From an uncultured Actinomycetota bacterium (GTDB lineage Bacteria > Actinomycetota > Actinomycetes > Streptomycetales > Streptomycetaceae), in the NCBI GenBank assembly GCA_963756705.1, contig CAVWOS010000009.1, positions 18,120-82,119 of the forward strand: a DNA stretch of 64,000 nt. Reading direction: 5' to 3'. A program made the translations under genes and the position numbers. The notes under the pieces were generated by a model. It was not told the origin of the DNA and made no database searches. It saw only the letters and a program-made list of their open reading frames with translations. Shown in pieces: positions 351 through 55,864 of this stretch; the stretch's first letter is position 1, and each line of letters opens with the position of its first letter.

Positions 351-1426
351 TCACGTCTGGTAGTGCAGGTGAGGGAGGAGCGCTTCGAACGCGGCGCGTG
401 CGCGGTTGGCGTCGGTACGGACCGCATCCAAGGTGCGCAGTCCTGCGGCCTCTTCACTGGCGTACTCCGCGGCACGCTCAGCGTGGATCTTCTCCGCCTT
501 CTCAAAGCACTCGCCGACCGCAACGACGTACTCCGGCCGGTGCGCGAGCACGTACGCGCGGACCGTGCGCGCGATGTGGCCCCAGTTGCCACGCTCGGTG
601 GTCCCGTTGGGGAGCGTGATGGTGATCCCACCATCCTCGTCCTCATCGAACACCCAGCGTGCGGGGAATTCGACCCGGGACACGTGCACGGTCGTCAGCA
701 TCGGGGAGCGGCGGAACTCTCCCTCGTAGCGCTCGAACCGGGAGTAGACCTCCACACACTGCGGGAAGCGCTCCGCGTAGTCCTCGGCGTCAGCAGTGGT
801 CACCCAGCCTTTGAGCACAACCGCACGCTCCGCGGTCCGGCCGTTCTCCCAGCCATCCTCTACGGCCGGCCCCATGACTTGGCGTGCTCGTGTCAATTCG
901 GAGAATTCCTCCCCACCTTCCGGGCCGGTCCCAGCCAGGCCGACCGACGCGGGCCCCACCACAGACAGCACCCCGGCCACGATGACGGCCGCAGCGTCGA
1001 CCACCGGCAGCACCCCGGCCCCCGGCGGTTCCTCCGGCGACTCCTCGGCATCGACCGTGCCGAACAGGCCCTGCGCTACCGCGGGCACGGCCGAGGCGAC
1101 CGCGCGGACACCGGGCGCCGCCGCGGGTCTCGGCGTCGCCCAGGTCGAACAGGCCCGGCTCCACCACGGGGCGCGCGGCCGGCCGCACCTCGTCCGCCGT
1201 GATCATGAAGTCGTCCGCCGTGACGTGCGCCGCGGCCCGACGGTCTTCCAGGACCGTACCGGCACGCCGTGCACACCGCGACCGTGCGATCCGCGATCCG
1301 CTCGGACGCGCGGTCCGGGTCGACCAGCACCAGGGCCCCGCGCAGCTTGGTGCAGTAGGAACGGGTGTACGGGGCGTCTGCCAGGTGCAGTACCCGGTCG
1401 GCGATGTTCTTGACGACGTGGCGCAT
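351..1426 (-). CDS. hypothetical protein (reconstructed across about 2 frameshifts near 1130 and 1230-1260)
   Basis: ATG at 1426 with an AAGGG SD; MRHVVKNIADRVLHL..CTAC, then FMITADEVRP..GLFDLGDAE, then PAVAQGLFG..HYQT join into one plausible frame after single-base corrections. Confidence 0.5.
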
Positions 1427-2756: not shown

Positions 2757-3464
2757 ACCCTGCTCCCCCTGCTGCCCCCGTCGGACCAGCGCGTGGCCCT
2801 GGGCGGCTTGCGGGCCTGCGGAGACAAGCGCCGCGCCGCCTACCAGGCGGCCCAGGAAGTTCGCCGCGACGTCTCCAGGGCTATCGCCGTCGCCCTCGGC
2901 GCGGGCGCGGCGCCGGCTGACATCGTGCGCATCGCCACCGAGAGCTATTCCCCCGCCCGCGGCGTGCCGTGCTCGGTGCACACGCGGCAGAGCGTGTACA
3001 AGGTCATCAACTCCGCCGAGGACGCCGGGGGCACGCACGCGGCGGCCGGCAGGCCGGGTCCGGACGAAGCGCTCGACGCGCTGGGCCTGGCCGTGCGAAC
3101 GGCCCTCCCGGCGGTCCACGAACACGAGCTGCACCGCGATGTCCTGGCGCGGGTCATGTGGGAGTGCATCGACGCCGGACGCGGGCCGGCCGAGGTAGCC
3201 GGCGCCTGCGGCTTCGCGTCCGCGGCCGCCTACCGGTACCTCGGCCTGCGGGGACGCTGGAACCGCGTGTCCGCCACTCTGGACAAGCACGGGCTGCTCG
3301 CCGCTGATGAGGTGCTGGTCCGCAACTTCGGCACGGGCATCGTGCTCTGCAATGTCGCCCAGGAGCCGCGTGTCCAGCAGCGGCTGCGGGAGTGCCTGGC
3401 CGAGGCAGGCGAGCGGCTGGGCGCCGGCCGGTACGGCGACTGGGCGGCCGTGCACCCCCTTTGA
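2751..3464 (+). CDS. putative DNA-binding protein with two HTH-like segments
   Basis: GAAPADIVRIA..TRQSVYKVI and GRGPAEVAGACGFASAAAYRYL resemble HTH motifs; strong SD. Confidence 0.55.
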   Translation: MDTLLPLLPPSDQRVALGGLRACGDKRRAAYQAAQEVRRDVSRAIAVALGAGAAPADIVRIATESYSPARGVPCSVHTRQSVYKVINSAEDAGGTHAAAGRPGPDEALDALGLAVRTALPAVHEHELHRDVLARVMWECIDAGRGPAEVAGACGFASAAAYRYLGLRGRWNRVSATLDKHGLLAADEVLVRNFGTGIVLCNVAQEPRVQQRLRECLAEAGERLGAGRYGDWAAVHPL

Positions 3465-9556: not shown

Positions 9557-11650
9557 TCACGGCAGGGCGCTGCGGATGTCGGCCAGCCGGTAGGCGGTCG
9601 GCCGCCCGGGAACGCCATCGAGGCGGATCGTCGGGACGTCGAGACCGGCTTTCCTGAGGCGGTCTTTGAGGGTGCGGCCGATCATCAGGGGTCGGTTCGC
9701 CCGCCCTTCCCACGCGCCGAAGACGGCCTCGTCGGCGGCAACCAGGTGGTCGGCGAGCTGCGCGATGGTCAGCGCCTGCGGGCTGCCCTCCGCCGCGAAG
9801 GCGTCGAGGAGCAGTTTGGCGATCTCCGGGATGCCGGACCGTACTGTGGCGGTGTCGTCGAGGGTCGGCAGGCCCGCGTCGACCCGTTCCTTGGCGCGGG
9901 CGGCCGCGGTGGTTGCGCTGATGGGTGGGACGTAGCGGAGCACCGGGTCGCGGTGTCGGGGGGTGATGCAGTAGAAGCGGCCGGCGTCTGCGGGCTCCCA
10001 CTCGCCAGGGCTGGGGACGAGCAGGTGCGGCAGCCACCCCCGGGAGATGGCGTCGGCCTGGCCGACCACCAGGGGGACGTCGGCCTGCCGGCACGGGAGC
10101 ATGATCCGCACGCCGAACACGTCGGCGACCGCGTCACCGAGGACGTCGGCGGTGGCGTCCTGGGTGCAGACCACCAGGGTCACCCTGGCTTTGCGGCCGA
10201 TGCGCAGCAGGTCCAGGGCGAGCTGCTTGCCGCGTTTGGACAGGCGGGGCCACTCGTCGACGAACGCGATGATCGCCGGGGCGTCGGGGGTGACGGTCCA
10301 GTTGTCCTCGACCGTGCCGAGCGCGGCGATCCGTGCCTCGGCCGTGGCGAGCAGGTGCTCCAGGAGTGCTTCGGCGTCTCTGGGGTTGAGGGCGCGGTGT
10401 GCGGCGCAGGGTCCCAGCGGGCCGAGTCCGCGGCCGGTGGGGTCGATGTCGATGGCGACGGCGTCGGTGCAGGCGGTGACGTAGTCGGCCATCGTGCGGA
10501 CCATCGTGGATTTGCCGCCGCCGGTGTCGGAGACGATCAGAGCGTGCTGTCCGGCCAGCACGACCGGTGTGGCGTCGCCGTCGATGCTGATGCCGATGCT
10601 GACCGGGTCGGTGATCGAGCAGGACAGCGGCGCGCGCAGCGGGGCGGGGGGCGGCGCCGCGAACGGGTCGGACAGCAGGATGCGCAGGGTGATGGCCGCG
10701 CCGTCCTCGGCGCTGGTGCGCTGCGCGAGCAGCCGGTTGTCGCCGACCCGCAGCGTGGTCGCCATCCTGGGCAGCACTCTGATCAGGTCCCCGAGGGTGC
10801 CGCCGGCCAGCACCACCGGCACCGTCCACCCCCAGGCGGTCTCGGCCGGCACGGCGACATCGGCGACCTGCGCGCGCTCCTTGCGCAGGGCCAGGATGAC
10901 GGCCTCGCGGGCCCGGCGGGGGTCCCGGCCGGCTTCGCGGATCGGGAACGGCTCCGGCTCCGGGGGCGCCTCCAGCTCGGTGTGCGCGGGCGGGGACGGG
11001 GGCACGAACAGCAGCTTGGGAACCCGCGGCCGGCGGCGCATCGGCCGACGCCCCTGCACCCACACCAACGCCACCGCGAACACGGCGAACAGCGCGGCAC
11101 AGAGCAGCGCGGCGGGTATCGAGATCCACCACACCCCCACCCACGCGGCCGGCAGTGCCAGCAGCCAGCCGACGGCAGCCAGATGCCGGCGGAAGCGGAC
11201 CTGGCCCCGGCCGATCGCCAGCATGCCGTCGGTCACTTCCAGGTGCCGGAACTCCTCCTGGCCCAGGCGCATCTGGAGCTGCGCCCACTGCATCATCTTG
11301 TAGGAGATCACCGGCGACGCGCCGCCGCCGTACATGCCGTAGCCCCCGCCATAGCCGCCGTAGCCGCCGCGGCTTCGTTGCTGGCGCTGTATCTGCATGC
11401 GCTGCATCTGCATGGCGGTGGCCTGCTTCTGCTGGTTCTTCAGCATGCTGATGTTCTGCGCGACTTCGGCCTGGGTCTTCTGGCGGTCCGCCTTCCACAG
11501 GCGGTACTGGTCGTTGAGGACACGGTGCGCGATGTGCGTGTCGGTCAGGTCCTCGGTACGCCACCAGCGGCCCCATTCGGCCCGCAAGTGGCGTGCTCCG
11601 GCGGACAAGGTGCCGGCCAGGGTGCTGGTGCTGGTGTTGTTGGTGGTCAT
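9557..11650 (-). CDS. traB: FtsK/SpoIIIE-family conjugative DNA translocase (TraB/TraSA-like)
   Basis: two TM helices, GQHALIVSDTGGGKST Walker A variant, FVDEW Walker B, RKARVTLVVCTQ sensor, C-terminal winged-helix-like domain. Confidence 0.8.
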   Translation of the reverse strand: MTTNNTSTSTLAGTLSAGARHLRAEWGRWWRTEDLTDTHIAHRVLNDQYRLWKADRQKTQAEVAQNISMLKNQQKQATAMQMQRMQIQRQQRSRGGYGGYGGGYGMYGGGASPVISYKMMQWAQLQMRLGQEEFRHLEVTDGMLAIGRGQVRFRRHLAAVGWLLALPAAWVGVWWISIPAALLCAALFAVFAVALVWVQGRRPMRRRPRVPKLLFVPPSPPAHTELEAPPEPEPFPIREAGRDPRRAREAVILALRKERAQVADVAVPAETAWGWTVPVVLAGGTLGDLIRVLPRMATTLRVGDNRLLAQRTSAEDGAAITLRILLSDPFAAPPPAPLRAPLSCSITDPVSIGISIDGDATPVVLAGQHALIVSDTGGGKSTMVRTMADYVTACTDAVAIDIDPTGRGLGPLGPCAAHRALNPRDAEALLEHLLATAEARIAALGTVEDNWTVTPDAPAIIAFVDEWPRLSKRGKQLALDLLRIGRKARVTLVVCTQDATADVLGDAVADVFGVRIMLPCRQADVPLVVGQADAISRGWLPHLLVPSPGEWEPADAGRFYCITPRHRDPVLRYVPPISATTAAARAKERVDAGLPTLDDTATVRSGIPEIAKLLLDAFAAEGSPQALTIAQLADHLVAADEAVFGAWEGRANRPLMIGRTLKDRLRKAGLDVPTIRLDGVPGRPTAYRLADIRSALP

Positions 11651-11665
11651 GTGTGCCGCCCCCGC

Positions 11666-12166
11666 TCAGATCCGGGTGAGCAGGATGCTGCCCACGGTGT
11701 TGCCGCTGGTGCGTATCAGGCCGAGGGACAGCCCGATCAGGCCGGCGGAGGCACCCAGCCACACCCCGCACAACGCCCCCAGGAGCACGGGGTTTTTCAG
11801 GTCCGGGCGCCCGGACTTGAACAGCCCGAGGTAGAGCGCGAGCAGGCACAACCCGGCGACCACGCCGGAGAACCCGACCTTCTCGCCGCCGGTCAGCGGC
11901 CGGTGCCCGCCGCCAGGGACCGCGGTGTTGGTGCCGGCCTCCAGGGCATAGCGGCCGACCCCGTCGCCGAGCGCCGCCGTCGCGCCGCCCATCGCGCCCA
12001 GGATGCCGCCGCCCAGGAACAGCAGAGTGGCCATCGCCACCCCGGCGATGAAATGCACCTTCGGAGTGGGGTCCCCGCCCCGCCACCGGCCCACCTGGTA
12101 GAAGAGGACGACCAGACCGGCGACGGACGCGCCGATTCCGCCGACGGCGGCTCCCGTGGTGTTCAT
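11666..12166 (-). CDS. small polytopic membrane protein (Spd/transfer accessory)
   Basis: Gly-rich hydrophobic helices; sits directly upstream of traB in the operon. Confidence 0.65.
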   Translation of the reverse strand: MNTTGAAVGGIGASVAGLVVLFYQVGRWRGGDPTPKVHFIAGVAMATLLFLGGGILGAMGGATAALGDGVGRYALEAGTNTAVPGGGHRPLTGGEKVGFSGVVAGLCLLALYLGLFKSGRPDLKNPVLLGALCGVWLGASAGLIGLSLGLIRTSGNTVGSILLTRI

Positions 12167-13059: not shown

Positions 13060-13476
13060 TTACGCGGGGCGGAGGTAGGCCGCGTACACCCACCCGGTGA
13101 AGCCGGACCGCAGTCCGGACGCGCTGCGCCGGGTCAGCCGCACCTGGAACCACGCTTGGTTCCAGCTCTCTCTGATCGGCGTCATGTGGTCGCCCCGGTA
13201 CAGCAGCCCGTAGGTCGTGTGGTGCGTGCTCGGTCCCGACCTGATCCGCAGGCCGTTCACCTTCGGCGTGGCCGTCCCGAATATCCACTCCGTCGTCGGG
13301 GCGAGCCGCGGGGCGGGGGCGGCCGATGCGGCGCCCACCCCGACCACTCCGATCAGCACCAGGCTTGCCGCCGCGGCCAGCGGCACCAGGCGCGTCGTGA
13401 TGCCCCTTCTGCGGGTGCTCCTTCTTCGGCTCCGGCCGGGCTGGGCGGGGGGCGGGGGAATGCGTGTGGTTTCCAC
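13060..13476 (-). CDS. secreted SH3b-domain protein
   Basis: Arg-rich signal peptide with AASA cleavage; GLRIRSGPST..GLLYRG..WFQV..GWVYAAYL is an SH3b signature. Confidence 0.8.
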   Translation of the reverse strand: METTRIPPPPAQPGRSRRRSTRRRGITTRLVPLAAAASLVLIGVVGVGAASAAPAPRLAPTTEWIFGTATPKVNGLRIRSGPSTHHTTYGLLYRGDHMTPIRESWNQAWFQVRLTRRSASGLRSGFTGWVYAAYLRPA

Positions 13477-13816
13477 GGCTTCTTCTTTCTGGTGCGGGGT
13501 ATACCGGGGTGACCACCCCTGGATGTGGGGGCGGTCCCGGTGTCTGCGGCCAGATTGGGCAGACCGGCCCCGCCCTGCCCAGAGCCCACATACTGAGCCG
13601 TATGGCTCATATGGGGCCTCTACCTTGCATTGGCGCATCGGGGACCCGTATCGGCTGCACCGCTCCATGTACGGGACCCTGCGGCGGGATCGGGCGGGCC
13701 CGGGCGGGCCGGGAGTGGCCCCCGTCACTTTGTCTGGACGACCCCCCGGCGCAAGGCATTACCTTCCTGGCATAAGGACCGAAAGCGGATCATCACGATG
13801 CACAGGGAGCCACGCC

Positions 13817-15733
13817 ATGCCCACACTCGACGAGGTGATCAACACCATCCCGGGCCTGCACTACGCGGTGCCCCCGGACGGCCCGGCGCGGGCGGCCGTG
13901 ATGGGAGTGCGGTCGACCGGCCACGGTTCCCCCCGACGCTGGGAGAACGGCCGGGAGGTGTCCGGCTGGCGGGGCCTGCTGGCGCTGCTGACCGGCAGCC
14001 CTGTGCAGTACGGCCCCCTGGTCCGCGCGCTGGCCGGCGGCGGCGCGGCGGGGATCGTCTGCGCCGCGCCGGTGCCCGCCGGGCTGGTGTCCGCCGGCCG
14101 TGCCCACCATCTGCCGGTCGTGGAGGTCACCGCTGAGGCGGCATCCGCGGAGTACCTCGCCGAAGCCGTCTTCAGCCTGCGGGACGCCGAGGAGACCGCG
14201 CACGCCAACTCCTTGCAGAAGCAGCTGGACAGCGCTCGGGGGCTACTGACCAGCGCGGGGAAGCAGGACGCCGTTCAGGCGATCCGGCAATGGCTGGAGG
14301 GAGCCGTGGGCGGCGAGGTGATGCTGGTAGCGCCCCATCAGGTGGGGCCCCCGATGCTGCCGTCCGGGCAGATCGTGCCGCGCGAAGAGATCGCCGCCCT
14401 CGCCGAGAGCGGGCAGATCGCGGCGAAGGAGGTGACGGTCGAGGACGGCCTGTCGGTGCGGCTGTCCTCTCTGAGCACCGGCATGCCCCATCATGTGCTG
14501 GCGGTGGCCCGCGAGGGCGGATGGCCGAAGACCGCAGCTGATGCGATAGCCCTGGCCAGCCCGGTGCTTGCCAGCTGGCTTCGGCAGGCCGCCGTCGGCG
14601 ACGCCGAGCGGGTGCCGGCCCGGACTGCGGTGCTCCAGATGCTCCTGGACGAGCAGGTACAACCGGCCCGGGAGGCCGCCAAGGCGATACGCGTCGCCCA
14701 CGCCGTCCTGCACACCGCCGCCCGGGTCAGGGTGTGCGTCATCAGCAGCCCATCGCAGGACATGGTGGTGTCCGCGCTCCATCACCACCTGGGCGACAAG
14801 GCCCTGGTCGTGCCGTACGGGGAGACCATCGTCGCGGTCATCGTGGACGACGAGAAAGTCCTGGCCGCCCTGCGCAGGTACCTCCACCCCCGGCGTGCCT
14901 ACATCGGCGTCAGCGGGCGGCATGCGCTGGACGAGGTCCGGGTGGGACATCTCCACGCGCGCCAGGCCATGGGCGCGGCCACCGACCGGCCGGAGCGGTG
15001 GGCACGATACGTGCCTGTCCTGTCCGATCTGGCCTCCGCGCTTCCCATCGGCCCGGCCTACCGCTGGCAGCAGGACCTCCTCCAGCCGCTGGAGGGTCTG
15101 CGCCCGGCCACGCGTGACCTGTGGCTGGAGACCACCCGCCTGGTCATGACCCACGGCACGTCGGTGGCCGCCGCGACCATGGGGGTGCACTACAACTCGG
15201 TCCGACGCCGCACCGCACAGATCTCCGGGGCACTCGGCCTGGACCCCGGCGACCCCGGCGACAGCATCGTGCTCGACCTGGCGCTGCGCATCCGCCGCCT
15301 GCGGCTGCGGGCACCGGCGCGCTCCACGCCCATCACCCTCGGCGAACTGCTGGAGACCCCGGCGGCGAGCGCCTGGGCCCGCACCATGATCGGCACGCTG
15401 CCCCCGCACCTCCTGGAAATAGTGATCGTCTGGCTCGATGCCTGGGCCGACGGCGCCGACGGCGCCAACGCCCGTGCGGCCGAACGCCTCGGCACCATGC
15501 CCAAAACGCTCCGGCGCCGCCTGCACGAGGCCGAGGCCCTCCTGGGGCGCACCCTGGTCACCAGCGCCCCCCTCGCAGGACCCGACCCGACCCCGGGCCG
15601 GGTCGGCTCGCGGCCGCCCCAACCGCCCAGCACACTCCCCGCCGAGCGCGGAATCAACGACCTCTTCCTGGCCGCGACCATCACCGGCACCCTGCAACGC
15701 CCCGTCCTGACCCCCCGCCACACCCAACGCTGA
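13817..15733 (+). CDS. PucR/CdaR-family transcriptional regulator with two C-terminal HTH domains
   Basis: AAATMGVHYNSVRRRTAQISGALGLD and AAERLGTMPKTLRRRLHEAEALLG; AGGGAG SD before the ATG. Confidence 0.8.
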   Translation: MPTLDEVINTIPGLHYAVPPDGPARAAVMGVRSTGHGSPRRWENGREVSGWRGLLALLTGSPVQYGPLVRALAGGGAAGIVCAAPVPAGLVSAGRAHHLPVVEVTAEAASAEYLAEAVFSLRDAEETAHANSLQKQLDSARGLLTSAGKQDAVQAIRQWLEGAVGGEVMLVAPHQVGPPMLPSGQIVPREEIAALAESGQIAAKEVTVEDGLSVRLSSLSTGMPHHVLAVAREGGWPKTAADAIALASPVLASWLRQAAVGDAERVPARTAVLQMLLDEQVQPAREAAKAIRVAHAVLHTAARVRVCVISSPSQDMVVSALHHHLGDKALVVPYGETIVAVIVDDEKVLAALRRYLHPRRAYIGVSGRHALDEVRVGHLHARQAMGAATDRPERWARYVPVLSDLASALPIGPAYRWQQDLLQPLEGLRPATRDLWLETTRLVMTHGTSVAAATMGVHYNSVRRRTAQISGALGLDPGDPGDSIVLDLALRIRRLRLRAPARSTPITLGELLETPAASAWARTMIGTLPPHLLEIVIVWLDAWADGADGANARAAERLGTMPKTLRRRLHEAEALLGRTLVTSAPLAGPDPTPGRVGSRPPQPPSTLPAERGINDLFLAATITGTLQRPVLTPRHTQR

Positions 15734-15946
15734 CAGCCACGGCCGCCACCTGGCCGCCAAGCCTGCAGGCCGCCGTCGCGGACGGCGGCGACAGCACACA
15801 GCGCCCCGGGCCGTACAGCAGAGCCCGCCCTCGATCACCCTGGCAGGCGGCAAGCCAACCGGAGGTGGGGAACGCTCTGTGGGTGTGGGTGGCCGCCCGG
15901 GCACGGTTCGCCGTTCGCGGCCGTCGTCATACGCACGGTCGCCCTG

Positions 15947-16198
15947 TTACGACGGGGGGCGCCCGGTTCGCCGTCCTGTCGTCGCCCACCACAACGACGT
16001 GGTCAGCCCCCGGAATCCGGTGTGCGACGGGGCGCGGCCGGAGTGCTGCAATGCCCACTGCTGGGCGTCGCCGGCGTCCTCCCCGGAAGCCGAGCGCTCC
16101 AGGCACGTCGTGCACTCCAACTCGAACAGCGGCGGCGCGCCTTCGGCGGTGTCCCGCTGGATCTTCCAGGTGACGAAGCGCGCCACGGAACGAGTCAC
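15947..16198 (-). CDS. small Cys/His Streptomyces protein (DUF7848-like)
   Basis: ECTTC..AQQWALQHSG..HTGFR pattern. Confidence 0.6.
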   Translation of the reverse strand: MTRSVARFVTWKIQRDTAEGAPPLFELECTTCLERSASGEDAGDAQQWALQHSGRAPSHTGFRGLTTSLWWATTGRRTGRPPS

Positions 16199-16259
16199 AG
16201 CGATACTCCGGCGGTAGTGCGCCCGGTGCGCAGACGGTGGGTTGAGCGGCGTTCGCGGC

Positions 16260-16440
16260 GGCAGGTGCCCCGCGGCGTGCGAGTTCACGTCGGTGTTCGA
16301 GGTTTTCCCCGCGTGCTTGCTCAAGGGCCTCTCTCAACGACCTTGTCTCCTCGCGGAGTTGTTCCTTGAGACGGGCGATCTCTGTGCTGGGCGCGAGGGC
16401 GAGGTTGTTCTCGCTGTCCTGCTCGGCCTGCCTGCGGGCG
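16260..16440 (-). pseudogene. coiled-coil C-terminal fragment resembling DUF6262/TnpC-like transposition helper
   Basis: EIARLKEQLREETRSLREALEQARGENLEHRRELARRG; no intact 5' end. Confidence 0.35.
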
Positions 16441-16886
16441 CAGGCCGGCGGAACCGGCGGAACCAGGAGGGGGGGCGATCCGGGTCCCGCCGGAGTCCCA
16501 GGCAAGGAGGAGCCTGCACCCCCCAGCCTGCACCCCACCAGCCCCCATCCCCCACCACGACCCGGCCCCGTTCACCCGAACGAACCACCCGGCACCACCA
16601 ACTCCACCCGGAGCACGGGAAGGCCCGTCACCGGTGTGGTGACGGGCCCTGTTGGTGCGGTCAGCGGCGGAGCGCTCGTGCGCGTCCGCTCCGCTGGGGT
16701 CGAACCGGACCCCGGGACGCCGGGTGTCTCCCCCATCCATCCGGCCGGCCGGGCAACGGCGGCGACCACCACCAGCCCCGGGTACACAAGCCGGTAGTGC
16801 CAGGGGCGCCGGCCGCCAGCCCGGCAGGGACGGCCGACACCCAGCGCGACGGCTTCAGCGGAGAACGACACCAAACCCTCCCTTAT

Positions 16887-17706
16887 TCACTGGCAGGGGT
16901 GCTGGAGTCCCGTCCTGCTGCCGGTCACCGCTCCCCCGGCTCGGGTGGGCCCCGTCAGCTCGGGGAGGGCGGCGCGCTGGGCGTGCAGGGCTTTGGCCAG
17001 GGTGGTGACGTAGGCGGTGGCGTGGGCGCGTCCGTCGGGGCCGGGGGTGGCCTGCACGCGCTGGATGAGGGCGGAGCCCACCAGGACGGCGTCGGCCAGG
17101 CGGCTGAGCTGCACGGCCCGGCTCACCTCGCACCGGCCGGCTCCGATCACGACGGGCAGCCGGGTGACGGCCCGGATGCGGGGGACGAAGTCGCGTAGGC
17201 CCGTCAGGTCCGGCCCGCCGGGATACCCGGTGGGCGTGTCGGTGGCGGGGGCGACGATCCAGCCGGTTGCGGCGCGGCACACGGTGGCCAGGCGGGTATC
17301 GGTGGCCCGGCGGAACGCGACGCGCGGGGCGAGCAGCCCGGCCCGGTGTGTGGTGGCGGCCCACAGATCGGCGTGGATCTGGGGCAGGTCAGGGACGGTT
17401 ATCGCGCCCGCGCCGGCTCTGGCCAGCGCGGTCGCGGCGCTGACCGGGCCGACCCGGGCGAGCGCGTCCCAGTGGGCGCGCACGACCACCGGCACCCCGT
17501 GGTGGCTGGTGATCTCGCTGACCGTGGTGATCGCGTCGGCCAGCGCGCTCTCGCCGGTGTGCCGGGCCGGCCCCGCGCCGATCTCCACGTATTCCGCGCC
17601 GGCCTCGATCAGTGGCGTGCAGGGTGCTGATCGCGTCGGTGGTGGTGGGCCAGCCGGCGGGCCAGAACACCCCCAGCACGGGGCCGGCGCGGAGCAGGGT
17701 GGTCAT
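16887..17706 (-). CDS. degenerate tryptophan synthase alpha-subunit-like TIM barrel (frameshift near 17615)
   Basis: LIEAGAEYVEIG, GAITVPDLP, TG, LPVVIGAG, ADAVLVGSALI match the TrpA scaffold; the PFSDPxADG loop is absent. Confidence 0.7.
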
Positions 17707-17871
17707 GGCTGTGGCGGCGGGTGTCGGTGTCGGGGTCGGGGTCACGGGGGTTCACCTTCTGTCTGCGGCCGGCCGGGCTGGGGGTGGTGGCCGGCTGGGG
17801 ATGGCCGGTTTCCGGGCGGGTGCCGCTGCACTGCGGCGCCCGGCGGGCGTGGGTGGGTGGGGGCGGTGGGG

Positions 17872-18538
17872 TTAGCGGCCGATGCCTATGGCCTGCTGGA
17901 TCGTGGTGGCGTCGGTGATCGCGCGGAGCATCGCGTCGGCGACGTCGGCCCGGCCGATCGACCGGTAGCGGTAGGGGTTGTGCTCGACGGTGACGCGGTA
18001 GGCGCCGGTGAGGGGCTGGTCGGTCAGCCGCGGCGGGCGCACGACCGTCCAGTCCAGGCCGCTTCCCCGCAGGTCGGCCTCCATCACGGCAAGGTCGGCG
18101 AAGTGGGCGCCGAGGAAGCGGCGGGCGAGCGGGGCGGCCAAGGTAGCGCATGACGGGCCCCTCGGCCGGATCGTGCACGGGCCGGGAGGGTCTGCCGGGC
18201 GAGGGCATGGTCAGCACGAGTACGGAGCTGACCGCCACCACCCGGCGCACGCCCGTGATCTGCATCGCCTCGATCAGCGATCGGGTGCCCGCGGCGGTGA
18301 TCCCGTGGTCGGCCCGGGTGCGCGGCCCGAAGGCCGACAACACCGCGTCGGCGCCCTCCACGGCCTCGGCCAGGGCTGCCGGGTCGGGCGCGGTCAGGTC
18401 CATGCGGACCGATGGGACGGGGTGGGGGAGCAGGGCGGGGGAGCGGACGACGGCGGTCACCTCGTGGCCGCGCTCCAGGGCCTGCTCCAGTAGCTGCCGG
18501 CCGATGCCTCCGGTGGCGGCGATGAGCGTGATCCTCAT
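17872..18538 (-). CDS. NAD(P)H-binding oxidoreductase (flavin/biliverdin reductase B-like; frameshift near 18140)
   Basis: MRITLIAATGGIG Rossmann motif, GADAVLSAFG, LDWTVVRPPRLTD, IGRADVADAML. Confidence 0.85.
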
Positions 18539-18608
18539 GACGTGGCTCCTTGGGTGTGATGCGGGGGGTGGTGACGGACGGCCCGGGGCGGGGCGGGCGG
18601 TGGCGGGG

Positions 18609-19400
18609 TCAGTGCTGTGTGCGGGGAGTGGGCGCGTCCCACATGTCCGTCATGGGCAGCAGGTGCTCCGGCAGGCGCCGCAGCGTGAGGCTCAGCAGAT
18701 CGGTGCGGTCCGGGAGGTAGGTGATGAGGGTGTGGGCGAGCGCGAGGCCGACCGGGGCAGCCGTGGGACGGTCGCTCGCGCGCACCCAGGCCAGGGTCGC
18801 CAGGCGCAGACACTGCAGGGCCGGGGCCGCGGGCGAGCTCAAGCTGTAGCGGGCGATGGCGATCCGGCAGTACAGATTGACCGCCCGGTCCCAGTGGCCG
18901 GCCAGCAGTGTCAGGTCGGCGTACAGCTCGCCGGCCAGCCACGGCCCCGGGTGGTCCTGGCCAAGGTCCAGAGTCAGCCGGCTGACCAGACGGCCGGCTG
19001 CCTTCACGGCCTCCTCGATGTCGCCGGCGCGCTCAGCGGCGAAGACCTGTTCCAGCAGGCCGTCCCGGTCCGGCGGCTGCTCGCTCCACCGCGGGTCCGG
19101 GGTGCCGCCGGGTGTGGATATGTGCGGGGCCAGCCGGTGCGGATTGCGGGCGCCGGCTCCGGTGACCGCGTAGACGTCGACCCGGCCGTGGGTCCGGCCG
19201 ACCCTGACCAGTACCGGACGCCCCTGCGCGGTGGCAGCCTCGGCTGCGTGCTGCCACAGCGGGTGCTCCGGCTCGTCCACGCCCGGTGACATCGCCCAGG
19301 ACAGGGCGTGGACGTCGCCTCCGGGCATCACCACGGCTGTGATCAGCGGAGCACCCAATACCGTGATCACCGCGTTTCCCGGGCGGGCGTAGCGGCTCAT
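18609..19400 (-). CDS. hypothetical protein with TPR-like helical C-terminus
   Basis: GGAGG SD before ATG 19400; LGQDHP..LYADL..GHWDRAVNLY resembles actinobacterial TPR repeats. Confidence 0.6.
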   Translation of the reverse strand: MSRYARPGNAVITVLGAPLITAVVMPGGDVHALSWAMSPGVDEPEHPLWQHAAEAATAQGRPVLVRVGRTHGRVDVYAVTGAGARNPHRLAPHISTPGGTPDPRWSEQPPDRDGLLEQVFAAERAGDIEEAVKAAGRLVSRLTLDLGQDHPGPWLAGELYADLTLLAGHWDRAVNLYCRIAIARYSLSSPAAPALQCLRLATLAWVRASDRPTAAPVGLALAHTLITYLPDRTDLLSLTLRRLPEHLLPMTDMWDAPTPRTQH

Positions 19401-19596
19401 CGTGTCCTCCACGGGAGACGGCGTCGCTGCCGGGCGGTGACACCGGTATGCAGGGCGTAGCGGCGCGCCGCCGCGTGGTAGAGCCAGGCCCTGTAAGGGC
19501 GGGTGCCGGGCCCGGCCGTGCGGTGCTCGAAGCGCCGCCCGCCCATGCCGGCCGTGCCGAGCGGGTGCGGACCGGGCCGCGTCGGGGTGCCGGCGG

Positions 19597-20817
19597 TCAC
19601 GACGCGCCACCTGTCCCGGGCCCGTCGCCCGTCCCGGACGCGCCGCCCGAGGTGATGTCGCACCGGATGCTCCAGTACAGGCCGTCACATGCGGTGCGGG
19701 TCACGTGCGGCATGGCCACCAGATGCGCCCTGCCGTCCTCCACGGCCAGGTCCCACCAGGCGCACACAGCCGGAGCCGGCGCGTCGAAGCTGACGATGAT
19801 CGACCCGGGTACCCGGTGCGGCCTGACTCCGAGACCCAGGAGGCGGTGATGCGCGTAGGAGGCGACGGACAGGCACTCCTGGACCTGGCGGCGCAACCCG
19901 TCACGGCCCAGATCCCGGAGCGCCACCCACATCAGTGCCGCGGCCAACCCGGAGCGCGAGCAGCCCAGCGTGCGGTCCCGGCCGCCGAGGTACTGCTCCA
20001 CACGGGCGGCCGGCACCAGGTGCTCGCGGGCCAGGACCACACCGCACGGCGTGGGCACGCCCAGGAATTTGTGGCCGCTGATCGTGATGCTGTCGGCCAT
20101 CCCGTCGGCGAACGTCCACCGCGGCGGCGAGGTGAGGAACGGGGCGACCAGCCCGCCCAAAGCGGCGTCGACGTGCACGTAGACCGGGCCGCCCGCGGCG
20201 CGTGCCGCCTCCCGCAGCGCGGGAACGTCGTCGTAGGCGCCGGTGGCGGTGATGCCGATCGTGGCCACCACGATCGCCCCGCCGTCCCGGCGAGCCGTCT
20301 CCCGCCGCAGCGCGGCCGGGTCCATCGTCCCGTCGCCGCGGCCATCGACGACCACCACGTCCATCCCCAACCGGCCGCACGCTTTGCGCACCGAGGAGTG
20401 CGTCGCGGCGGTCGTGTAGACCGGCGCCCGCGGCAGGGCCCGCCGAGCGACGTGGAGCCCGAACTCATTGCCTTCGCTACCGCCGGAGACGATGTAGCCG
20501 TACACATCGGCCCGGGGGATGTCGGTCAGACCGGCGAAGAAGTTGATCACTTCGCGTTCCAGAGCCTTGGTGCCGCCATCGTCCGCATCGGGATCACCGG
20601 CGTTGTTGAAGTGCACCCCGAGCAGGCCAGCGAGGTCGCGAAAATCGGTGGCCCGGTTGCCTGGATAGCCCAGCGATGACCGGTCGCGCTCATGGGCCTG
20701 CTCGGTCAGCCGGCCGATACGGGCCCGGGTGACCACAGGGTCGCCCGGGGCGTCGCCGATCGCGTCATCCAGACCCGCCAGATCCGGGGCCTGTCGGGGA
20801 CGAGGTATGAGAGCCAT
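19597..20817 (-). CDS. PLP-dependent group II decarboxylase (histidine decarboxylase family)
   Basis: SLGYPGN, NNAGDP, GYIVSGGSEGN, HVDAALGG, SGHK (PLP lysine), GCSRSG. Confidence 0.9.
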   Translation of the reverse strand: MALIPRPRQAPDLAGLDDAIGDAPGDPVVTRARIGRLTEQAHERDRSSLGYPGNRATDFRDLAGLLGVHFNNAGDPDADDGGTKALEREVINFFAGLTDIPRADVYGYIVSGGSEGNEFGLHVARRALPRAPVYTTAATHSSVRKACGRLGMDVVVVDGRGDGTMDPAALRRETARRDGGAIVVATIGITATGAYDDVPALREAARAAGGPVYVHVDAALGGLVAPFLTSPPRWTFADGMADSITISGHKFLGVPTPCGVVLAREHLVPAARVEQYLGGRDRTLGCSRSGLAAALMWVALRDLGRDGLRRQVQECLSVASYAHHRLLGLGVRPHRVPGSIIVSFDAPAPAVCAWWDLAVEDGRAHLVAMPHVTRTACDGLYWSIRCDITSGGASGTGDGPGTGGAS

Positions 20818-21033
20818 AGGGCCGCCTTCGGCCAGTGCGGAACGGCCCCGACCGGGGTGTGCTCCGCAGGGATTTATGAGCGGGTGGGGCCCATGCCCGT
20901 GGGCCCCACCCCGGCGAACGGCCGCGCCTGCCAGAACGCACAGCCGAGATGGCCCCCCACTGGGCCACCGCCGTGCCGTCAGACCACCACGACCGCCACA
21001 CCCACACACCGGCCCCGACGCTGAGCGGTGCAC

Positions 21034-21082
21034 CGGATTTGGGGTGCGAACCCTCAATTTGCGGGTTCGCACCCCAAATCCG
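21034..21082. repeat. perfect 20-bp inverted repeat with 9-nt loop
   Basis: CGGATTTGGGGTGCGAACCC / GGGTTCGCACCCCAAATCCG. Confidence 0.9.
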
Positions 21083-21130
21083 ACATGGCGCTCAGCATCC
21101 CGGCACTCCCGGCGCCGCCGGGCCCGCTCC

Positions 21131-21136
21131 TAACGT
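21131..21136 (+). promoter_or_regulatory. putative -10 element (TAACGT) of the tRNA gene
   Basis: 7 nt upstream of tRNA G1. Confidence 0.35.
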
Positions 21137-21143
21137 CGGCCCC

Positions 21144-21227
21144 GCCTGGGTGGCGCAACGGCAGACGCAGCCGATTTAAAACCGGCCGCCCCCCGGGGGC
21201 ATGCGGGTTCGAGTCCCGTCCCAGGCG
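21144..21227 (+). tRNA. bldA-like: tRNA-Leu (anticodon UAA), class II, bldA-like; G73 discriminator, A31-C39 mismatch, CCA not encoded
   Basis: acceptor GCCTGGG/CCCAGGC; D-arm GCG-CAACGGCAGA-CGC; anticodon arm GCCGA-TTTAAAA-CCGGC (TAA at 21177-21179); variable arm GCCCC/GGGGC; T-arm GCGGG-TTCGAGT-CCCGT. Confidence 0.85.
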
Positions 21228-21292
21228 CCCGCCCGGCCCGACTCGGGCCGACCCTCCCGGGCCACCTCACAACCGACTGACGGAGGAGACCG

Positions 21293-22336
21293 ATGACCCA
21301 CCACTCCCACGTGCGGCTCCGCCCCGCCCTGGCCGGCATCGCCGCGGCGGCCGCACTCCTGACAGCAGGCTGCACCGCCGGCCACCACGCCGGCCCACCA
21401 CCTACCAGCTCCCCGACCACCACCGGCCCGACCACAGCGCCAGCCACCGTCGCGCCACCCTCCCCCATGGACGCAGCGGCCATCCTGACCCGCTACATAA
21501 AGATCAACAACCAGGCCAACAAGGAGGTCTCCCCCAAGCTCAACGACACGATCGAGACCGGCGCCCTGCGGGCGCAGTCCCAGGCCGAGTACAAGCAGTA
21601 CCCGATCCTCACCGCCCAGGACCGCAAAGAACTCGGGGCCTTCACCTACGTGAAGCCGCACTTCTACATCCCGCGTCTCCCCGCAGGCCAGGCCCCCTGG
21701 TTCGCCGTCATCGCCCAGGAATCCGACCACAGCTCCAAGAGCACCCACACCACCTACATGATCTTCGTGGAGGAGCACCTCGGCACGTGGCGGATGGCCG
21801 CCGCGACCGAACCCTGGAAAACCCCCACACCGAAAATCGCCCTCGACTCCCACGGCTACGCCACCGCCGTCGACCCCGACAGCACCGGCCTGGCCCTGCG
21901 CCCCTCCCAGCTGTCCGCCGCGGTCACCGACAACTACACGACCGGCGGGAAAGTAGACGGTCAGGTCTTCACCCCTACCGCGCAGACGACCGAGGCGCGC
22001 ACCGAGTACAAGAAGCGCAACAACGGGCTGCTGCCCTACGCGACCGGCACCTACGTCAGCCTCAACGACCCGTATCACGCCACGTCCGTGTGGGCCCTGC
22101 GCACCAGCGACGGGGGCGTCCTGGCCATCTCCTCCAGCGTCCACGGGCTGGCAGAGGTCGCGGAGCCCGGCGGCATCATCACCATCAACCCGGGCGCCCG
22201 CGAGCGCGCGTGGATCACGAGCAAGACGGTGTACTCCCTGACCACCCAGTGGACATGCCTGGACGCCGCAGCCATCCCCACCAGAGGCAAGGCCCGCCTC
22301 CTGGGTTCCGACTGCGAGATCACCGACGCCACCTGA
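21293..22336 (+). CDS. secreted lipoprotein of unknown function
   Basis: lipobox LTAGC, Pro/Thr linker, GGAG SD. Confidence 0.75.
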   Translation: MTHHSHVRLRPALAGIAAAAALLTAGCTAGHHAGPPPTSSPTTTGPTTAPATVAPPSPMDAAAILTRYIKINNQANKEVSPKLNDTIETGALRAQSQAEYKQYPILTAQDRKELGAFTYVKPHFYIPRLPAGQAPWFAVIAQESDHSSKSTHTTYMIFVEEHLGTWRMAAATEPWKTPTPKIALDSHGYATAVDPDSTGLALRPSQLSAAVTDNYTTGGKVDGQVFTPTAQTTEARTEYKKRNNGLLPYATGTYVSLNDPYHATSVWALRTSDGGVLAISSSVHGLAEVAEPGGIITINPGARERAWITSKTVYSLTTQWTCLDAAAIPTRGKARLLGSDCEITDAT

Positions 22337-38967: not shown

Positions 38968-39494
38968 GGAACAACTCAGCAGCGACGCTGCCTTCCGACG
39001 GACCCAAGCCTCCGTACCTGATGGCCGCTGACCGTCTCCGGCTGGAGATCCGCGCCGGCCGCTACAAGCCCGGCGACCGGCTCCCGTCATCGCGCGAGCT
39101 GCGGGGGAGCCTGGGCATCGCGAACGCCACGGTGCGCGCGGCGCTCCGGGTCCTGCGGCAGGAGGGACTGGTCTACTCGGTCCAGGGGCGCGGCACCTAC
39201 GTGGCAGATCCTGCCATGCCCCCTGACGGTGCCCACAGCCCAGCAGCCACCTTGGCCCTGGTTATGGAAGTGCGGGACGAAGTGCGGCGCATCGGGGACG
39301 TGGTGACCGATCTCCGGGCGCGCGCTGAGGTTCCCGGAGTGCTGGGGCCGCGGCAAGGGAAATATTGGGACCTTGTGAGCGCTCTCCGGGTGGGCGGCGT
39401 TTCCGGCACGCATGTCCCTGCCCCTCCGGGACGATGCCCGGTTGATGTCGGTTTCCCGGCGATTGGGGGCCGCAAATGCCGTATATTGGTGTAG
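38964..39494 (+). CDS. GntR-family winged-HTH regulator
   Basis: YKPGDRLPSSREL..GIANATVRAALRVLRQEGLVYSVQGRGTYV. Confidence 0.85.
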   Translation: MRNNSAATLPSDGPKPPYLMAADRLRLEIRAGRYKPGDRLPSSRELRGSLGIANATVRAALRVLRQEGLVYSVQGRGTYVADPAMPPDGAHSPAATLALVMEVRDEVRRIGDVVTDLRARAEVPGVLGPRQGKYWDLVSALRVGGVSGTHVPAPPGRCPVDVGFPAIGGRKCRILV

Positions 39495-39534
39495 GAGTCA
39501 TCTGATCTCGGCGTGGTCGAGCAGCAGGCGAGAA

Positions 39535-42492
39535 ATGAGTCAGCGCAAGCGCGGCACACGGCAGCCCCTGTTGGGTTCATCGGAGGCTGCACGGCTGCGC
39601 CTTCTTGAGGCCGAGAGCGACGGATTGGCCGATTTCGAGCTGGCGCGTCTCACGCTCCTCCAGGCGGTGGCGGGCATCGGGGGGCTCGGCGGCATGATCC
39701 ATCGGTACAGTCCGGCGGATCGCACCCTGCATCTGGTGGCGGCCAACGGGCTCACCCGGGCCCTCGCTGCGGCGTGGGAGGATCTCGCCGGGGACGATGA
39801 GGGGGCGCCGGCGCAGGCGATCCGCGACGGCCGCCTCGCCTGGCTGCCGGCCGAGGCGGCGAGCCCCGCCCCATCCGGTCAGGCCCCCGCCCCGCACGAT
39901 CCGACGGCCGGCCGGTGGGGCTTCCCCGAGGGCACGGGGCTCGCTGTTGTCCCGGTCCCCGGTGCGGACGGCCCGCTGGCGGTCGTGTCGGTGCTGACGG
40001 CTCAGCCGGGCGGGCCCGACGAGGAGGGGCGGGCGTTCCTGCGGGCCTTGGCCGCGCAGACCGGCGGGCATCTGCAGGAGCTGCGCCGGGCAGCGCCGTC
40101 CTTGGACCCGTCCTGGTGGCAGGAGCCGTCGGGCTCGCGCCTGCAGCAGGCCATGCACGGCGTCCGTACCGGGGTCGGCGAGTGGGATGTCGTCACGGGC
40201 GAGCTGGTCTGCGACGAGGTGATGCTCGAAGTCGGCGGCCTGGACCCGCGCACTTTCGACGGCAGGATCGACACCTGGATGGGCGTCGTGCATCCCGACG
40301 ACCTGCCCGGCGTACAGGCCGCCCTCCAGGGCGCGCTCACCTCGGGGAATGTGGTCAGTGTCGAATACCGGGTGTGTCATTCGGACGGCAGCGTCCACTG
40401 GGTCGAGTCGCGTGCCCACGTCACGCTCGGCGAAAACGGCGAGCCGGTTCTGATGTCCGGGACGGTGTGGGACATCACGGAGACCCGCCTGGCCCGGGAT
40501 TCCATCGGGCGCGTCCTGGAGCACATGAGCGACGGATTCGTCGTGCTCGACGGGGAATCACGCATCATGTACGCCAACGCGGAAGCGGAGCGCCTCTTCG
40601 GGTCACCCGGGGGTCTGTCGGGGCGCGTGCTGGGGGAGGCCGTTCCCGAGACTGATGCCCTGGGCCTGGCGGGGCGCCTCCGGGAGACCGCCGCCGCGGG
40701 GGTGCCCGCGGGGTTCGATGTCCGGTGGCCCGGCACTCGCCGCTCCTATCACTTGCGGCTGGTGCCGGTACCCGCCGGTGTCACGGTCTACATTGCGGAT
40801 GTCACCGAGCAGCGCATGCGGGAGGAGGCTCGTGCCGCGGCGGTACGTGCCGCGGCGGTACGTGCCGCGCGTATCGCGGAGTTGACCGCTACGCTGGCGC
40901 AGGCACTCACCGTGCGCGATGTCGTGGACGCCGTCGCTGCACGGGTCCTGGCGTCGTTCGGCGCCACCGCATTGATCGTGCAGGCCCGGGACGGCGACCG
41001 GCTGCGGACGGTGGGGACCGTGGGGTATTCCCGCGAGGCCCTCGGCTCCCTCGGCACGCCGCGCCTCCCGGAGGGCCCGACGCCGGGCGAGCCGTTTGCC
41101 GCGCACACGTTCGTCGCCTCGGGCGACGAACTTGCTGCGCTGGGTCGCTCGGCCGGCTTCCGGGACTGCGGGCGGTTGAACGCGTGGGCGTTCCTGCCGC
41201 TCATCGCCTCCGGGCACGCTGTCGGCAGCTGCGTGATCGCGTGGGATCGGCCGCGGCGGTTCTCCGGCGAGGAGCGTGCGCTGCTGACCGCGCTGAGCGG
41301 CCTGGTGGCCCAGGCTCTGGAGCGGGCCCGGCTCTACGACCTCGCTCACACGCGCGCGCACGAGTTGCAGCGCGGCCTGCTGCCCCGCGTCCTGCCCTCG
41401 CTGTCCGCGGTCGCGGCCGCGGCCCGTTACCTGCCGGCCGGCGACGACGCGGAGGTCGGCGGCGACTGGTACGACGTCATCCGTCTGTCGTCGGATCGCG
41501 TGGCGATCGTCATCGGCGACGTCATGGGTCACGGCCTGTCCGAGGCCGCCACCATGGGCCGCCTGCGCACCGCCATCCGCACTCTGGCCGATCTTGACAT
41601 TCCTCCCTCCGAGTTGCTGGCCCATCTCAACGATCTGGTCAGTGGGCTCGGCGACGATTTCTACGCGACCTGCCTGTACGCCGTGTACGACCCCACCACC
41701 CGTATCTGCACTTTTGCCCGTGCCGGTCACCCGCCGCCCGCCATCGTCGCTCCTGATGGCACCGTCACCTTCCCTGACCTCGCCTCGGCGCCGCCGCTGG
41801 GCGCCGCGACCCCGCCCTTCGACACCGTGGACATGGGGCTGCCGGACGGCAGCATCCTCGTCCTGTACACCGACGGCCTGGTCGCGGCGACGGGCCTGGA
41901 CATCGACGACGGGAGAGCACGGCTTGCCGGGGTCCTGACCGCTGCTGTGGCCCCGCCGATGCCGGCCGCAGCCGGCGACGACGGGGGCGCGGCATGCGCG
42001 GGTCTGGAAGACCTGTGTGACGCGCTCACCGCCGCACTCGTGCCCGCCCGGCGGCGCGGCAGCGACGACGCGGCGCTGCTCGTCGCCCGCACCCACGGCC
42101 TTGCCTCCCAGGACATTGCCTCCTGGCCACTGCCCGATTCCGCTATCGCTGCGGGGCAGGCGCGCGACTACGTCCGGGGCCAGCTCGGGAAGTGGGGTCT
42201 GGACGAGCTCGTCATGACGACCGAACTGCTGGTCTCCGAACTGGTCGGCAATGTCGTCCGTCATGCCCGGGGCCCGGTCCGGCTGCGTCTGCTGCGCGGA
42301 ACGGCCCTGACCTGCGAGGTCTCCGACGGTAGTCAGAGCACTCCCCGTATCCGCCGGGCAGCCGAGACCGACGAGGGCGGACGCGGACTCCAGCTGGTCG
42401 CCGCCATGTCTCATCGGTGGGGCGCCCGCCCCACGGCCACCGGGAAATGCATCTGGACCGAACAGCTCCTCCCTGGAGACGAACGCGGGTGA
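39535..42492 (+). CDS. GAF-PAS-GAF-SpoIIE(PP2C)-HATPase multi-sensor protein
   Basis: PAS VHPDDL, EVGGDWYDV, IGDVMGHG, LYTDGLV, SELVGN..DEGGRGLQLV. Confidence 0.92.
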   Translation: MSQRKRGTRQPLLGSSEAARLRLLEAESDGLADFELARLTLLQAVAGIGGLGGMIHRYSPADRTLHLVAANGLTRALAAAWEDLAGDDEGAPAQAIRDGRLAWLPAEAASPAPSGQAPAPHDPTAGRWGFPEGTGLAVVPVPGADGPLAVVSVLTAQPGGPDEEGRAFLRALAAQTGGHLQELRRAAPSLDPSWWQEPSGSRLQQAMHGVRTGVGEWDVVTGELVCDEVMLEVGGLDPRTFDGRIDTWMGVVHPDDLPGVQAALQGALTSGNVVSVEYRVCHSDGSVHWVESRAHVTLGENGEPVLMSGTVWDITETRLARDSIGRVLEHMSDGFVVLDGESRIMYANAEAERLFGSPGGLSGRVLGEAVPETDALGLAGRLRETAAAGVPAGFDVRWPGTRRSYHLRLVPVPAGVTVYIADVTEQRMREEARAAAVRAAAVRAARIAELTATLAQALTVRDVVDAVAARVLASFGATALIVQARDGDRLRTVGTVGYSREALGSLGTPRLPEGPTPGEPFAAHTFVASGDELAALGRSAGFRDCGRLNAWAFLPLIASGHAVGSCVIAWDRPRRFSGEERALLTALSGLVAQALERARLYDLAHTRAHELQRGLLPRVLPSLSAVAAAARYLPAGDDAEVGGDWYDVIRLSSDRVAIVIGDVMGHGLSEAATMGRLRTAIRTLADLDIPPSELLAHLNDLVSGLGDDFYATCLYAVYDPTTRICTFARAGHPPPAIVAPDGTVTFPDLASAPPLGAATPPFDTVDMGLPDGSILVLYTDGLVAATGLDIDDGRARLAGVLTAAVAPPMPAAAGDDGGAACAGLEDLCDALTAALVPARRRGSDDAALLVARTHGLASQDIASWPLPDSAIAAGQARDYVRGQLGKWGLDELVMTTELLVSELVGNVVRHARGPVRLRLLRGTALTCEVSDGSQSTPRIRRAAETDEGGRGLQLVAAMSHRWGARPTATGKCIWTEQLLPGDERG

Positions 42493-45628: not shown

Positions 45629-45952
45629 GGGTCAGCAGGTCACCGGGGTAACGACGGGGGTGATCCCGGCCGCAAGGGCTGGTGCGCGCGGGCCGGACCC
45701 GCGGCCGCGGGCGGCAGCTCAGCGCCCCGCGCCGTCCGGCGGGTGGCCCTTGGTACGGGGGCCGACGGCGGCAGGTCGATCGGATGCGCGGCTACCGGGT
45801 TCATGATGCGTCCGACACGGGATCTTGCTCCCTCGGCGCGACGCCCCTGGCATCGACAAGGGTGCGCCTTCCACCATCTTCCCATGCCCTCCCGACGTGG
45901 ATTTTGCTCTCGCCGGGCGACGGGTGGCTCCTCACGGGGGGTGGTCATCGGT

Positions 45953-55796: not shown

Positions 55797-55864
55797 CGGC
55801 CGACCCGCCGGCAACAACTCGCCCTGTTCACACGCAACGACGCGTACCGTCCGGGAGCCGCCCC

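Follow-up and report, generated by a model that had tools for sequence, protein, structure and literature searches.

The window, i.e., the whole 64,000-nt stretch of DNA analyzed here (G+C content 71.7%), contains a single tRNA gene according to ARAGORN. It is a type II tRNA with the anticodon UAA (reading UUA codons), whose positions 1 to 73 lie at 21144-21227 on the forward strand (Rfam RF00005; ARAGORN tRNA-Leu(taa)). The Rfam tRNA model RF00005 gave a score of 43.9 bits against a gathering score of 29, as expected for a tRNA, and placed G1 at 21144, C72 at 21226, and the discriminator G73 at 21227, which confirms the original prediction that the base after the acceptor stem is G. ARAGORN called the gene with a one-base shift (21143-21230), because C-1 (21143) is able to pair with G73. 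The ARAGORN register (C1-G72 and C73) puts a G at position 8 and conflicts with the Rfam alignment and all relatives, and was rejected; the Rfam register is correct, since U8 is retained and all relatives are consistent with it.

Structural parsing revealed that all stems of this tRNA are fully paired except for positions 31-39: the acceptor stem has 7/7 pairs (G1-C72 to G7-C66, including a compensated U4-A69 pair), the T-stem has 5/5 pairs (T-arm GCGGG UUCGAGU CCCGU), and U8, G9, A14, G18G19, U33, U54-U55-C56, and A58 are all retained. The tRNA has a leucine-type D-arm (GCG/CAACGGCAGA/CGC) identical to that of leucine relatives. Similar to bldA-like tRNAs, the anticodon arm (GCCGA/UUUAAAA/CCGGC) has a 7-nt loop of UUUAAAA at 21175-21181 with U33, and both ARAGORN and Rfam locate the anticodon TAA at 21177-21179 on the forward strand. 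The long variable arm of 16 nt (21187-21202, forward strand) consists of a 5-bp stem (GCCCC/GGGGC) and a 3-nt loop; together with the leucine-type D-arm (U8-A14, G18G19), it places the gene among the bldA-like type II tRNAs. The last anticodon-stem pair had also been predicted to be a mismatch, which was borne out by A31 at 21174 facing C39 at 21182 (both forward strand). G73 is followed by CCCG; thus, C74 and C75 are encoded (21228-21229, forward strand), while position 76 is C and the CCA end is incompletely encoded. A -10-like hexamer, TAACGT (21131-21136, forward strand; TAGCGT in two related loci, L124 and L137, described below), lies 7 nt before the tRNA 5' end and may be its promoter, and scans for sigma-70 consensus promoters and intrinsic terminators at the tRNA gave no match. 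The tRNA is flanked by an imperfect 7-nt direct repeat (CGCCTGG at 21143-21149 and CGCCCGG at 21230-21236, both on the forward strand).

On one side of the tRNA lies a PLP-dependent histidine-decarboxylase-like gene (ORF 19597-21072, reverse strand; called product of 406 aa) that heads a small operon containing an NmrA-like gene, a TrpA-like gene, and a PucR-type regulator gene. The region 13217-20817, which encodes the PucR-type regulator, the TrpA-like protein, the NmrA-like reductase, an unknown protein of ~264 aa, and the histidine-decarboxylase-like PLP enzyme, is syntenic with L124 and may specify a small amine or indole-related pathway. Between the decarboxylase start and the tRNA is a long near-perfect palindrome (21017-21098; RNA fold of -60 kcal/mol, z = -9.4), for which Rfam returned sub-threshold microRNA look-alike matches only; it might form an RNA hairpin or serve the divergent genes as an operator. 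A palindrome also occupies this site in L124 and L137, with different arms and a similar centre (CAATTTGCG / CAATCCGCG). On the other side, a DUF8094/SCO2278-family lipoprotein gene (21293-22336, forward strand) is located 65 nt downstream of the tRNA. The 35 window ORFs scanned, which include both genes flanking the tRNA, yielded no synthetase domain, and no nuclease or defence gene was identified beside the tRNA. Direct look-ups of the proteins encoded in the window gave no match.

Considering that the window encodes a ParA protein (sharing 61% identity with its counterparts on Streptomyces plasmids), a DUF2637 protein, an MmyB-like regulator, and a weak TraB match, it appears to be part of a plasmid-like replicon. 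Its acetoacetate-CoA ligase shares 87-89% identity with proteins from Actinacidiphila and Streptomyces, thus placing the host in Streptomycetaceae. The ligase gene (window 55817-57869) shows 99.6% DNA identity to positions 9953-12005 of a 2.03-Mb ENA contig (L141) with unrelated flanks, for which a recent single-gene transfer or duplication, or a chimeric contig, is a possible cause; because of these unrelated flanks, this contig was rejected as a third view of the tRNA locus. Two large convergent PAS-GAF-SpoIIE (PP2C) phosphatase genes, one of which also has a HATPase_c_2 anti-sigma-kinase-like domain, are located at 39379-42492 (forward strand) and 42572-45631 (reverse strand). TTA is a rare codon in Streptomycetaceae, where UUA codons are located in regulatory and secondary-metabolism genes, and it is rare in the window ORFs as well (~4 in 16,600 codons). 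One TTA codon (60934-60936, reverse strand) was observed in the MvdD-like pre-ATP-grasp domain of an ATP-grasp gene (ORF 60310-61551), and this gene for a RiPP-type maturation enzyme is a possible client of a UUA-reading tRNA.

A family survey of tRNA(UAA) genes sharing the D-arm and anticodon pattern was carried out by structural parsing of sequences from one genome per species, plasmids, and viral contigs, in which all counts represent samples rather than censuses. Among the 110 other distinct family members listed, position 73 is A in 109, U in one, and G in none; the 31-39 pair is Watson-Crick in all of them (G-C in 59, A-U in 32, C-G in 14, and U-A in 5); and 109 of the 110 have C32. Judged against these sequences, the window tRNA is a true outlier at positions 73, 31-39, and 32 and ordinary elsewhere. 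It lacks the A73 of bldA-like tRNA-Leu(UAA), its A31·C39 mismatch is unique among the 110 listed members, and its Rfam score is among the lowest in the family (which range from 43.4 to 57.8 bits); the latter two features were counted against the explanation favored below. The mismatch costs ~2.8 kcal/mol (cloverleaf of -39.1 vs -41.9 kcal/mol with G31) and leaves four G-C pairs, in which the values were used for the anticodon-stem energy difference only, as MFE folding misses the cloverleaf for both the observed and the G31 versions. Since 31-39 switches freely between G-C, A-U, C-G, and U-A in the listed members, A·C at this site may be one of the mismatched or wobble intermediates that pair switches must pass through. 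U32 (21175, forward strand) is derived in the window lineage, nearly all of its relatives having C32. The tRNALeu(UAA) of E. coli has an identical anticodon loop (UUUAAAA), and therefore U32 in itself is not abnormal for this isoacceptor. A further derived base, U65 (21219, forward strand; mostly C65 in relatives), preserves the structure by forming a G49·U65 wobble pair.

The same tRNA was found in an independent public run (X1, Logan contigs), whose 5350-nt contig covers 21090-21231 with two differences only, one upstream of the tRNA (21125) and one in the variable-arm loop (21193, C>T). At a word depth of ~13.6, its bases are identical to those of the window at 21143, 21174, 21175, 21182, and 21227. 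The tRNA thus differs at 1/84 nt between the window and X1, compared with ~6% in the downstream CDS (47/757 positions, plus 11 gaps). Immediately after the tRNA, 12 nt (window 21232-21243) are swapped for 54 other nt in X1, and sequence comparison indicates that this stretch is an indel hot spot, as the deletion in L124 also ends there. A search of public runs detected the sequence in a single run and in no RNA run.

The order of decarboxylase, palindrome, tRNA, and DUF8094 gene recurs in several Logan contigs (L124 and L137-L140), which allowed the history of the locus to be examined. In L124, both flanks align with the window and the DUF8094 protein is 71% identical to that of the window; the tRNA has been deleted and its first six bases (GCCTGG) remain. 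The CGCCTGG/CGCCCGG repeat would be a plausible substrate for this deletion. The DUF8094 protein of L137-L140 is 59% identical to that of the window and 63% to that of L124, and these contigs were therefore regarded as the outgroup. They hold a relic of the same tRNA, which in L137 was recognized by neither ARAGORN nor Rfam (not detected at E below 10). Among its lesions are U8C and G10C, changes in the T-loop, and two deletions, one of 13 nt and one of 1 nt in the 3' acceptor strand; the anticodon is destroyed as well. The 3' ends of the relic (CCCA-GC G CCCGC) and of the window tRNA (CCCAGGC G CCCGC) can be reconciled only by the loss of one G. Because the relic shares the G at position 73, G73 is ancestral to this clade and predates the split, and because the relic keeps GCCGG CU, G31A, C32U, and C65U arose later in the window/X1 lineage. 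From the split onwards, ~3 changes (G31A, C32U, and C65U) have accumulated in the window copy, compared with at least 10 substitutions and 2 deletions in the relic, so that 3/15 events fall in the window copy (one-sided binomial P ~0.02). That the window copy has changed far less than the relic suggests past selection on the window tRNA, i.e., that selection maintained the G73 tRNA during a large part of this period. Given the deletion in L124 and the decay in L137, such selection would have been at best weak, and the locus itself is dispensable. Two further contigs (L125 and L126) have upstream regions too short to be informative, and in a third (L136) the DUF8094 gene occurs in a different setting that lacks a tRNA. 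We also considered an origin as an integration (att) site and rejected it: the window contains no second copy of the tRNA 3' half, the ORFs scanned (both flanking genes included) yielded no integrase, and both flanks are syntenic in relatives without the tRNA.

The closest BLAST relatives of the window tRNA are tRNA(UAA) genes on Streptomyces plasmids (74-84% identity), and the same family was found in predicted prophages. Many members, on Streptomyces plasmids and in predicted prophages, are type I tRNAs of 74-75 nt with a short variable loop, such as those on plasmids (L002, L003, and L004), in genomes (L041, L054, L109, and L120), and in IMG/VR (L127, L130, L131, L132, L134, and L135). A plasmid copy of S. 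platensis, a genome copy of S. desertarenae, and the IMG/VR locus L129 are of type II like the window copy. Type I tRNALeu in S. coelicolor is known for the anticodon CAA only (PMC6614811), and no description of mobile-element tRNA(UAA) genes was found in the literature searched. The 5' halves of tRNA(UAA) without a matching 3' half were observed in L079, L016, and L036. L079 shares its Dehalococcoidia contig with a complete copy (L034), an arrangement to be expected where an integrated element ends in a duplication.

Several accessory copies deviate at the same sites as the window tRNA. The linear plasmid pSITFR-21a of Actinacidiphila sp. ITFR-21 (L003) carries two tRNA(UAA) genes 1.6 kb apart (1323-1407, reverse strand, and 3001-3075, forward strand): the bldA-type copy has a perfect cloverleaf with U32, G73, and the loop UUUAAAU, and the short-armed copy combines U32 with an irregular anticodon arm (GCCGG TTTAAAT CGGTC). 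Plasmids of S. anulatus, S. microflavus, S. globisporus, and Streptomyces sp. MMBL 11-1 (L262-L267) share a conserved cassette of genes for an ATP-binding protein, a ScbR-family autoregulator receptor, a bldA-type tRNA(UAA), and a type III polyketide synthase (phlD), the tRNA lying between the receptor gene and phlD. The tRNAs of these cassettes range from intact forms with A73 or G73 (G73 in S. anulatus NBC_01626), through forms with 31-39 mismatches (C31·C39 in L263 and C31·U39 in L265), to unrecognizable ones; L267 has a T-loop insertion and L266 can no longer be recognized as a tRNA. In addition, U73 occurs in S. yunnanensis and in the IMG/VR locus L135. A first metagenome pattern scan gave no match. 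In the 108 well-folded metagenomic examples of canonical bldA-type genes that are listed (sequence family GCCCGGA TGGTGGAATGCAGACACG GCGAG CTTAAAC CTCGC), A73 is present in 108/108 and 31-39 mismatches are absent too. In these sequences, position 73 and the 31-39 pair are the sites that vary in otherwise intact accessory copies. Such a recurrence pattern fits a redundant gene under weak selection in which two tolerated sites drift first, and it provides no pointer to a new function of G73.

A73 had been regarded in the original prediction as a major LeuRS determinant, whose replacement by G would create an identity conflict. This does not hold for the relevant bacterial family. The LeuRS of S. 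coelicolor makes no interaction with A73, retains 66% of kcat/Km on A73G tRNALeu(UAA), and supports full complementation of a bldA null by all three A73 mutants (PMC6614811). Its determinants are C74 (the key 3'-end element), the U8-A14 pair, and the D/T elbow. The enzyme does not require the stem of the variable arm, and type I tRNALeu is a natural substrate (PMC6614811). Every element needed by this enzyme is present in the window tRNA. Because Streptomyces LeuRS ignores position 73 (PMC6614811), G73 is likely to be harmless in this bacterial family and, by analogy, is most likely harmless in the window tRNA. It is probably not fully neutral, given that A73 is strictly kept in the canonical bldA genes listed.

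Taken together, we favor, with a probability of roughly 55%, the explanation that the window tRNA is an accessory bldA-like type II tRNA-Leu(UAA), possibly weakened but still accepting leucine, on a plasmid-like element of a Streptomycetaceae bacterium close to Actinacidiphila. It would be charged with leucine and read the rare UUA codons, possibly less efficiently than the canonical copy; we infer that it is expressed and leucylated by the host LeuRS and that a canonical bldA is present elsewhere in the genome. G73 would be an old substitution that is tolerated by a Streptomyces-type LeuRS relying on C74, U8-A14, and the D/T elbow, all of which are intact. A31·C39 and U32 would be younger G:C-to-A:T transitions that leave a 4-bp G+C-rich anticodon stem, and the mismatch resembles the pair-switching intermediates of other plasmid copies. 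Redundancy and weak selection on this tRNA would also explain why relatives have lost it or let it decay.

The main rival is that the gene is an early-stage pseudogene, already non-functional (either unexpressed or made useless on the ribosome by the broken 31-39 pair) and intact-looking because it was inactivated recently. We consider this possibility doubtful but live. The deletion and decay of the same locus in L124 and L137-L140, the decay of other plasmid copies (L266 and L267), the unique 31-39 mismatch with a low-end Rfam score, and the small number of nearby TTA codons to serve would all agree with it, as would the fact that all three lineage-specific changes are G:C-to-A:T, as from mutation pressure alone. 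However, a pseudogene would be expected to have lost pairs or invariant nucleotides and to escape the models, and what was found is one mismatch in a tRNA detected by both tools. Moreover, with G73 being ancestral, a complete cloverleaf was kept while the sister relic gathered at least 12 lesions, all elements known to be important for S. coelicolor LeuRS are intact, and the difference between the window and X1 tRNAs is confined to a loop. The original suggestion that the tRNA may simply be decaying therefore survives in part: the locus has indeed been lost or has decayed in relatives, but the cloverleaf in the window is intact except at 31-39.

A non-decoding role, in which the tRNA would act as an uncharged competitor, as bait for an anticodon nuclease, or as a tRNA-shaped processing element in the mRNA leader of the DUF8094 gene, seems improbable. 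The position of the tRNA 65 nt upstream of that gene on the same strand and the conserved -10-like motif that they share upstream would be compatible with such a role, and the deviations affect the discriminator and the anticodon arm, neither of which is needed by a mere RNase P/Z substrate. Against this, the gene arrangement downstream is the same in relatives that lack the tRNA (L124) or carry a ruined copy (L137). Such roles, of which those of competitor and decoy had been proposed originally, are also at odds with the canonical anticodon and loop and with the failure to identify an adjacent nuclease or defence gene.

It had also been suggested that the tRNA might insert serine at UUA. In bacteria, the serine identity set comprises G73, C72, G2-C71, R4-Y69, C11-G24, G30-C40, and a large variable region, and G73 and C2-G71 are antideterminants against the LeuRS and SerRS of E. 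coli, respectively, the latter pair being that of E. coli tRNALeu (PMC9976931). In such a case, the tRNA would have a switched or ambiguous identity, G73 and the long variable arm would allow charging by SerRS or another synthetase, and UUA would be partly translated as serine. G73, C72, C11-G24, G30-C40, and the large variable region are indeed all present in the window tRNA, G73 would counteract a LeuRS of the E. coli type (PMC9976931), and Streptomyces has dedicated mistranslating tRNAs (PMC10404621). On the other hand, the window tRNA has C2-G71 and U4-A69 instead of G2-C71 and R4-Y69, and it shares with the leucine family both its D-arm and the two unpaired bases that follow the variable stem. 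The serine-like elements do not discriminate between the two identities, because all but G73 are common to leucine relatives with A73. In addition, A73G tRNA is charged well by Streptomyces LeuRS (PMC6614811) and no synthetase paralogue was found among the 35 window ORFs scanned. Serine identity is thus unlikely from the sequence, and we regard this whole scenario as highly improbable. If it were true, expression of the plasmid tRNA would make the reading of the rare UUA codons ambiguous between Leu and Ser, and the independent origin of G73 in at least one further accessory lineage, represented by the bldA-type copies of pSITFR-21a and S. anulatus NBC_01626, would reflect convergence and not neutrality. 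Finally, although the window looks like a metagenome-type contig, the sequencing or assembly error that had been left open is practically ruled out, as the independent X1 contig carries the same deviant bases, including G73, and the relic in four further runs also has this G.

A73 is regarded as a nearly universal hallmark of leucine tRNAs. The tRNA(UAA) of the window is a natural example with G73 whose cloverleaf has stayed complete over a long divergence, and G73 or U73 is also found in four other accessory tRNA(UAA) loci of Streptomycetaceae among the matches listed. Such natural copies would corroborate the laboratory finding that the LeuRS of this family ignores the discriminator. The UUA codon in Streptomyces is developmentally gated. 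Considering that Streptomyces plasmids and predicted prophages often carry their own UUA tRNA, in both short-arm and long-arm forms, these mobile-element tRNAs could free TTA-containing genes of the element from the control of the host bldA. Anyhow, a natural G73 tRNALeu is unusual but agrees with published biochemistry and leaves current concepts unchanged; it is not evidence for mistranslation.

With regard to known systems, the original prediction drew a parallel to mistranslating tRNAs. Both tRNAProA/tRNAProX, which are known in Streptomyces and Kitasatospora, and the window tRNA have unusual identity features; however, tRNAProX has a foreign anticodon in a proline tRNA body and is usually located beside a special ProRS isoform (PMC10404621). 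In the window tRNA, body and anticodon agree, both being of the leucine UAA type, its neighbours are the PLP decarboxylase and the DUF8094 lipoprotein genes, and a synthetase isoform was not found in the ORFs scanned. Another such system is bldA, the tRNA-Leu(UAA) of Streptomyces, which shares with the window tRNA the anticodon UAA, the long variable arm, the leucine-type D-arm with U8-A14, and the occurrence in Streptomycetaceae. The two belong to different sequence families, as the D-arm is GGCGCAACGGCAGACGC and the anticodon stem starts with GCCG in the window, compared with GGTGGAATGCAGACAC and GCGAG in canonical bldA; and unlike bldA, the window tRNA has G73, A31·C39, and a plasmid-like context and has been lost in relatives. 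The A73G mutant of S. coelicolor is likewise a type II UAA tRNA with G73 in a Streptomycetaceae setting (PMC6614811), but it was engineered from canonical bldA with the anticodon stem intact, whereas the window tRNA is natural and of another sequence family. The accessory tRNA(UAA) genes of Streptomyces plasmids and prophages resemble it in both their mobile or accessory context and the kinds of deviation; most of them have A73 and a paired 31-39, whereas the window copy combines G73, the mismatch, and U32.
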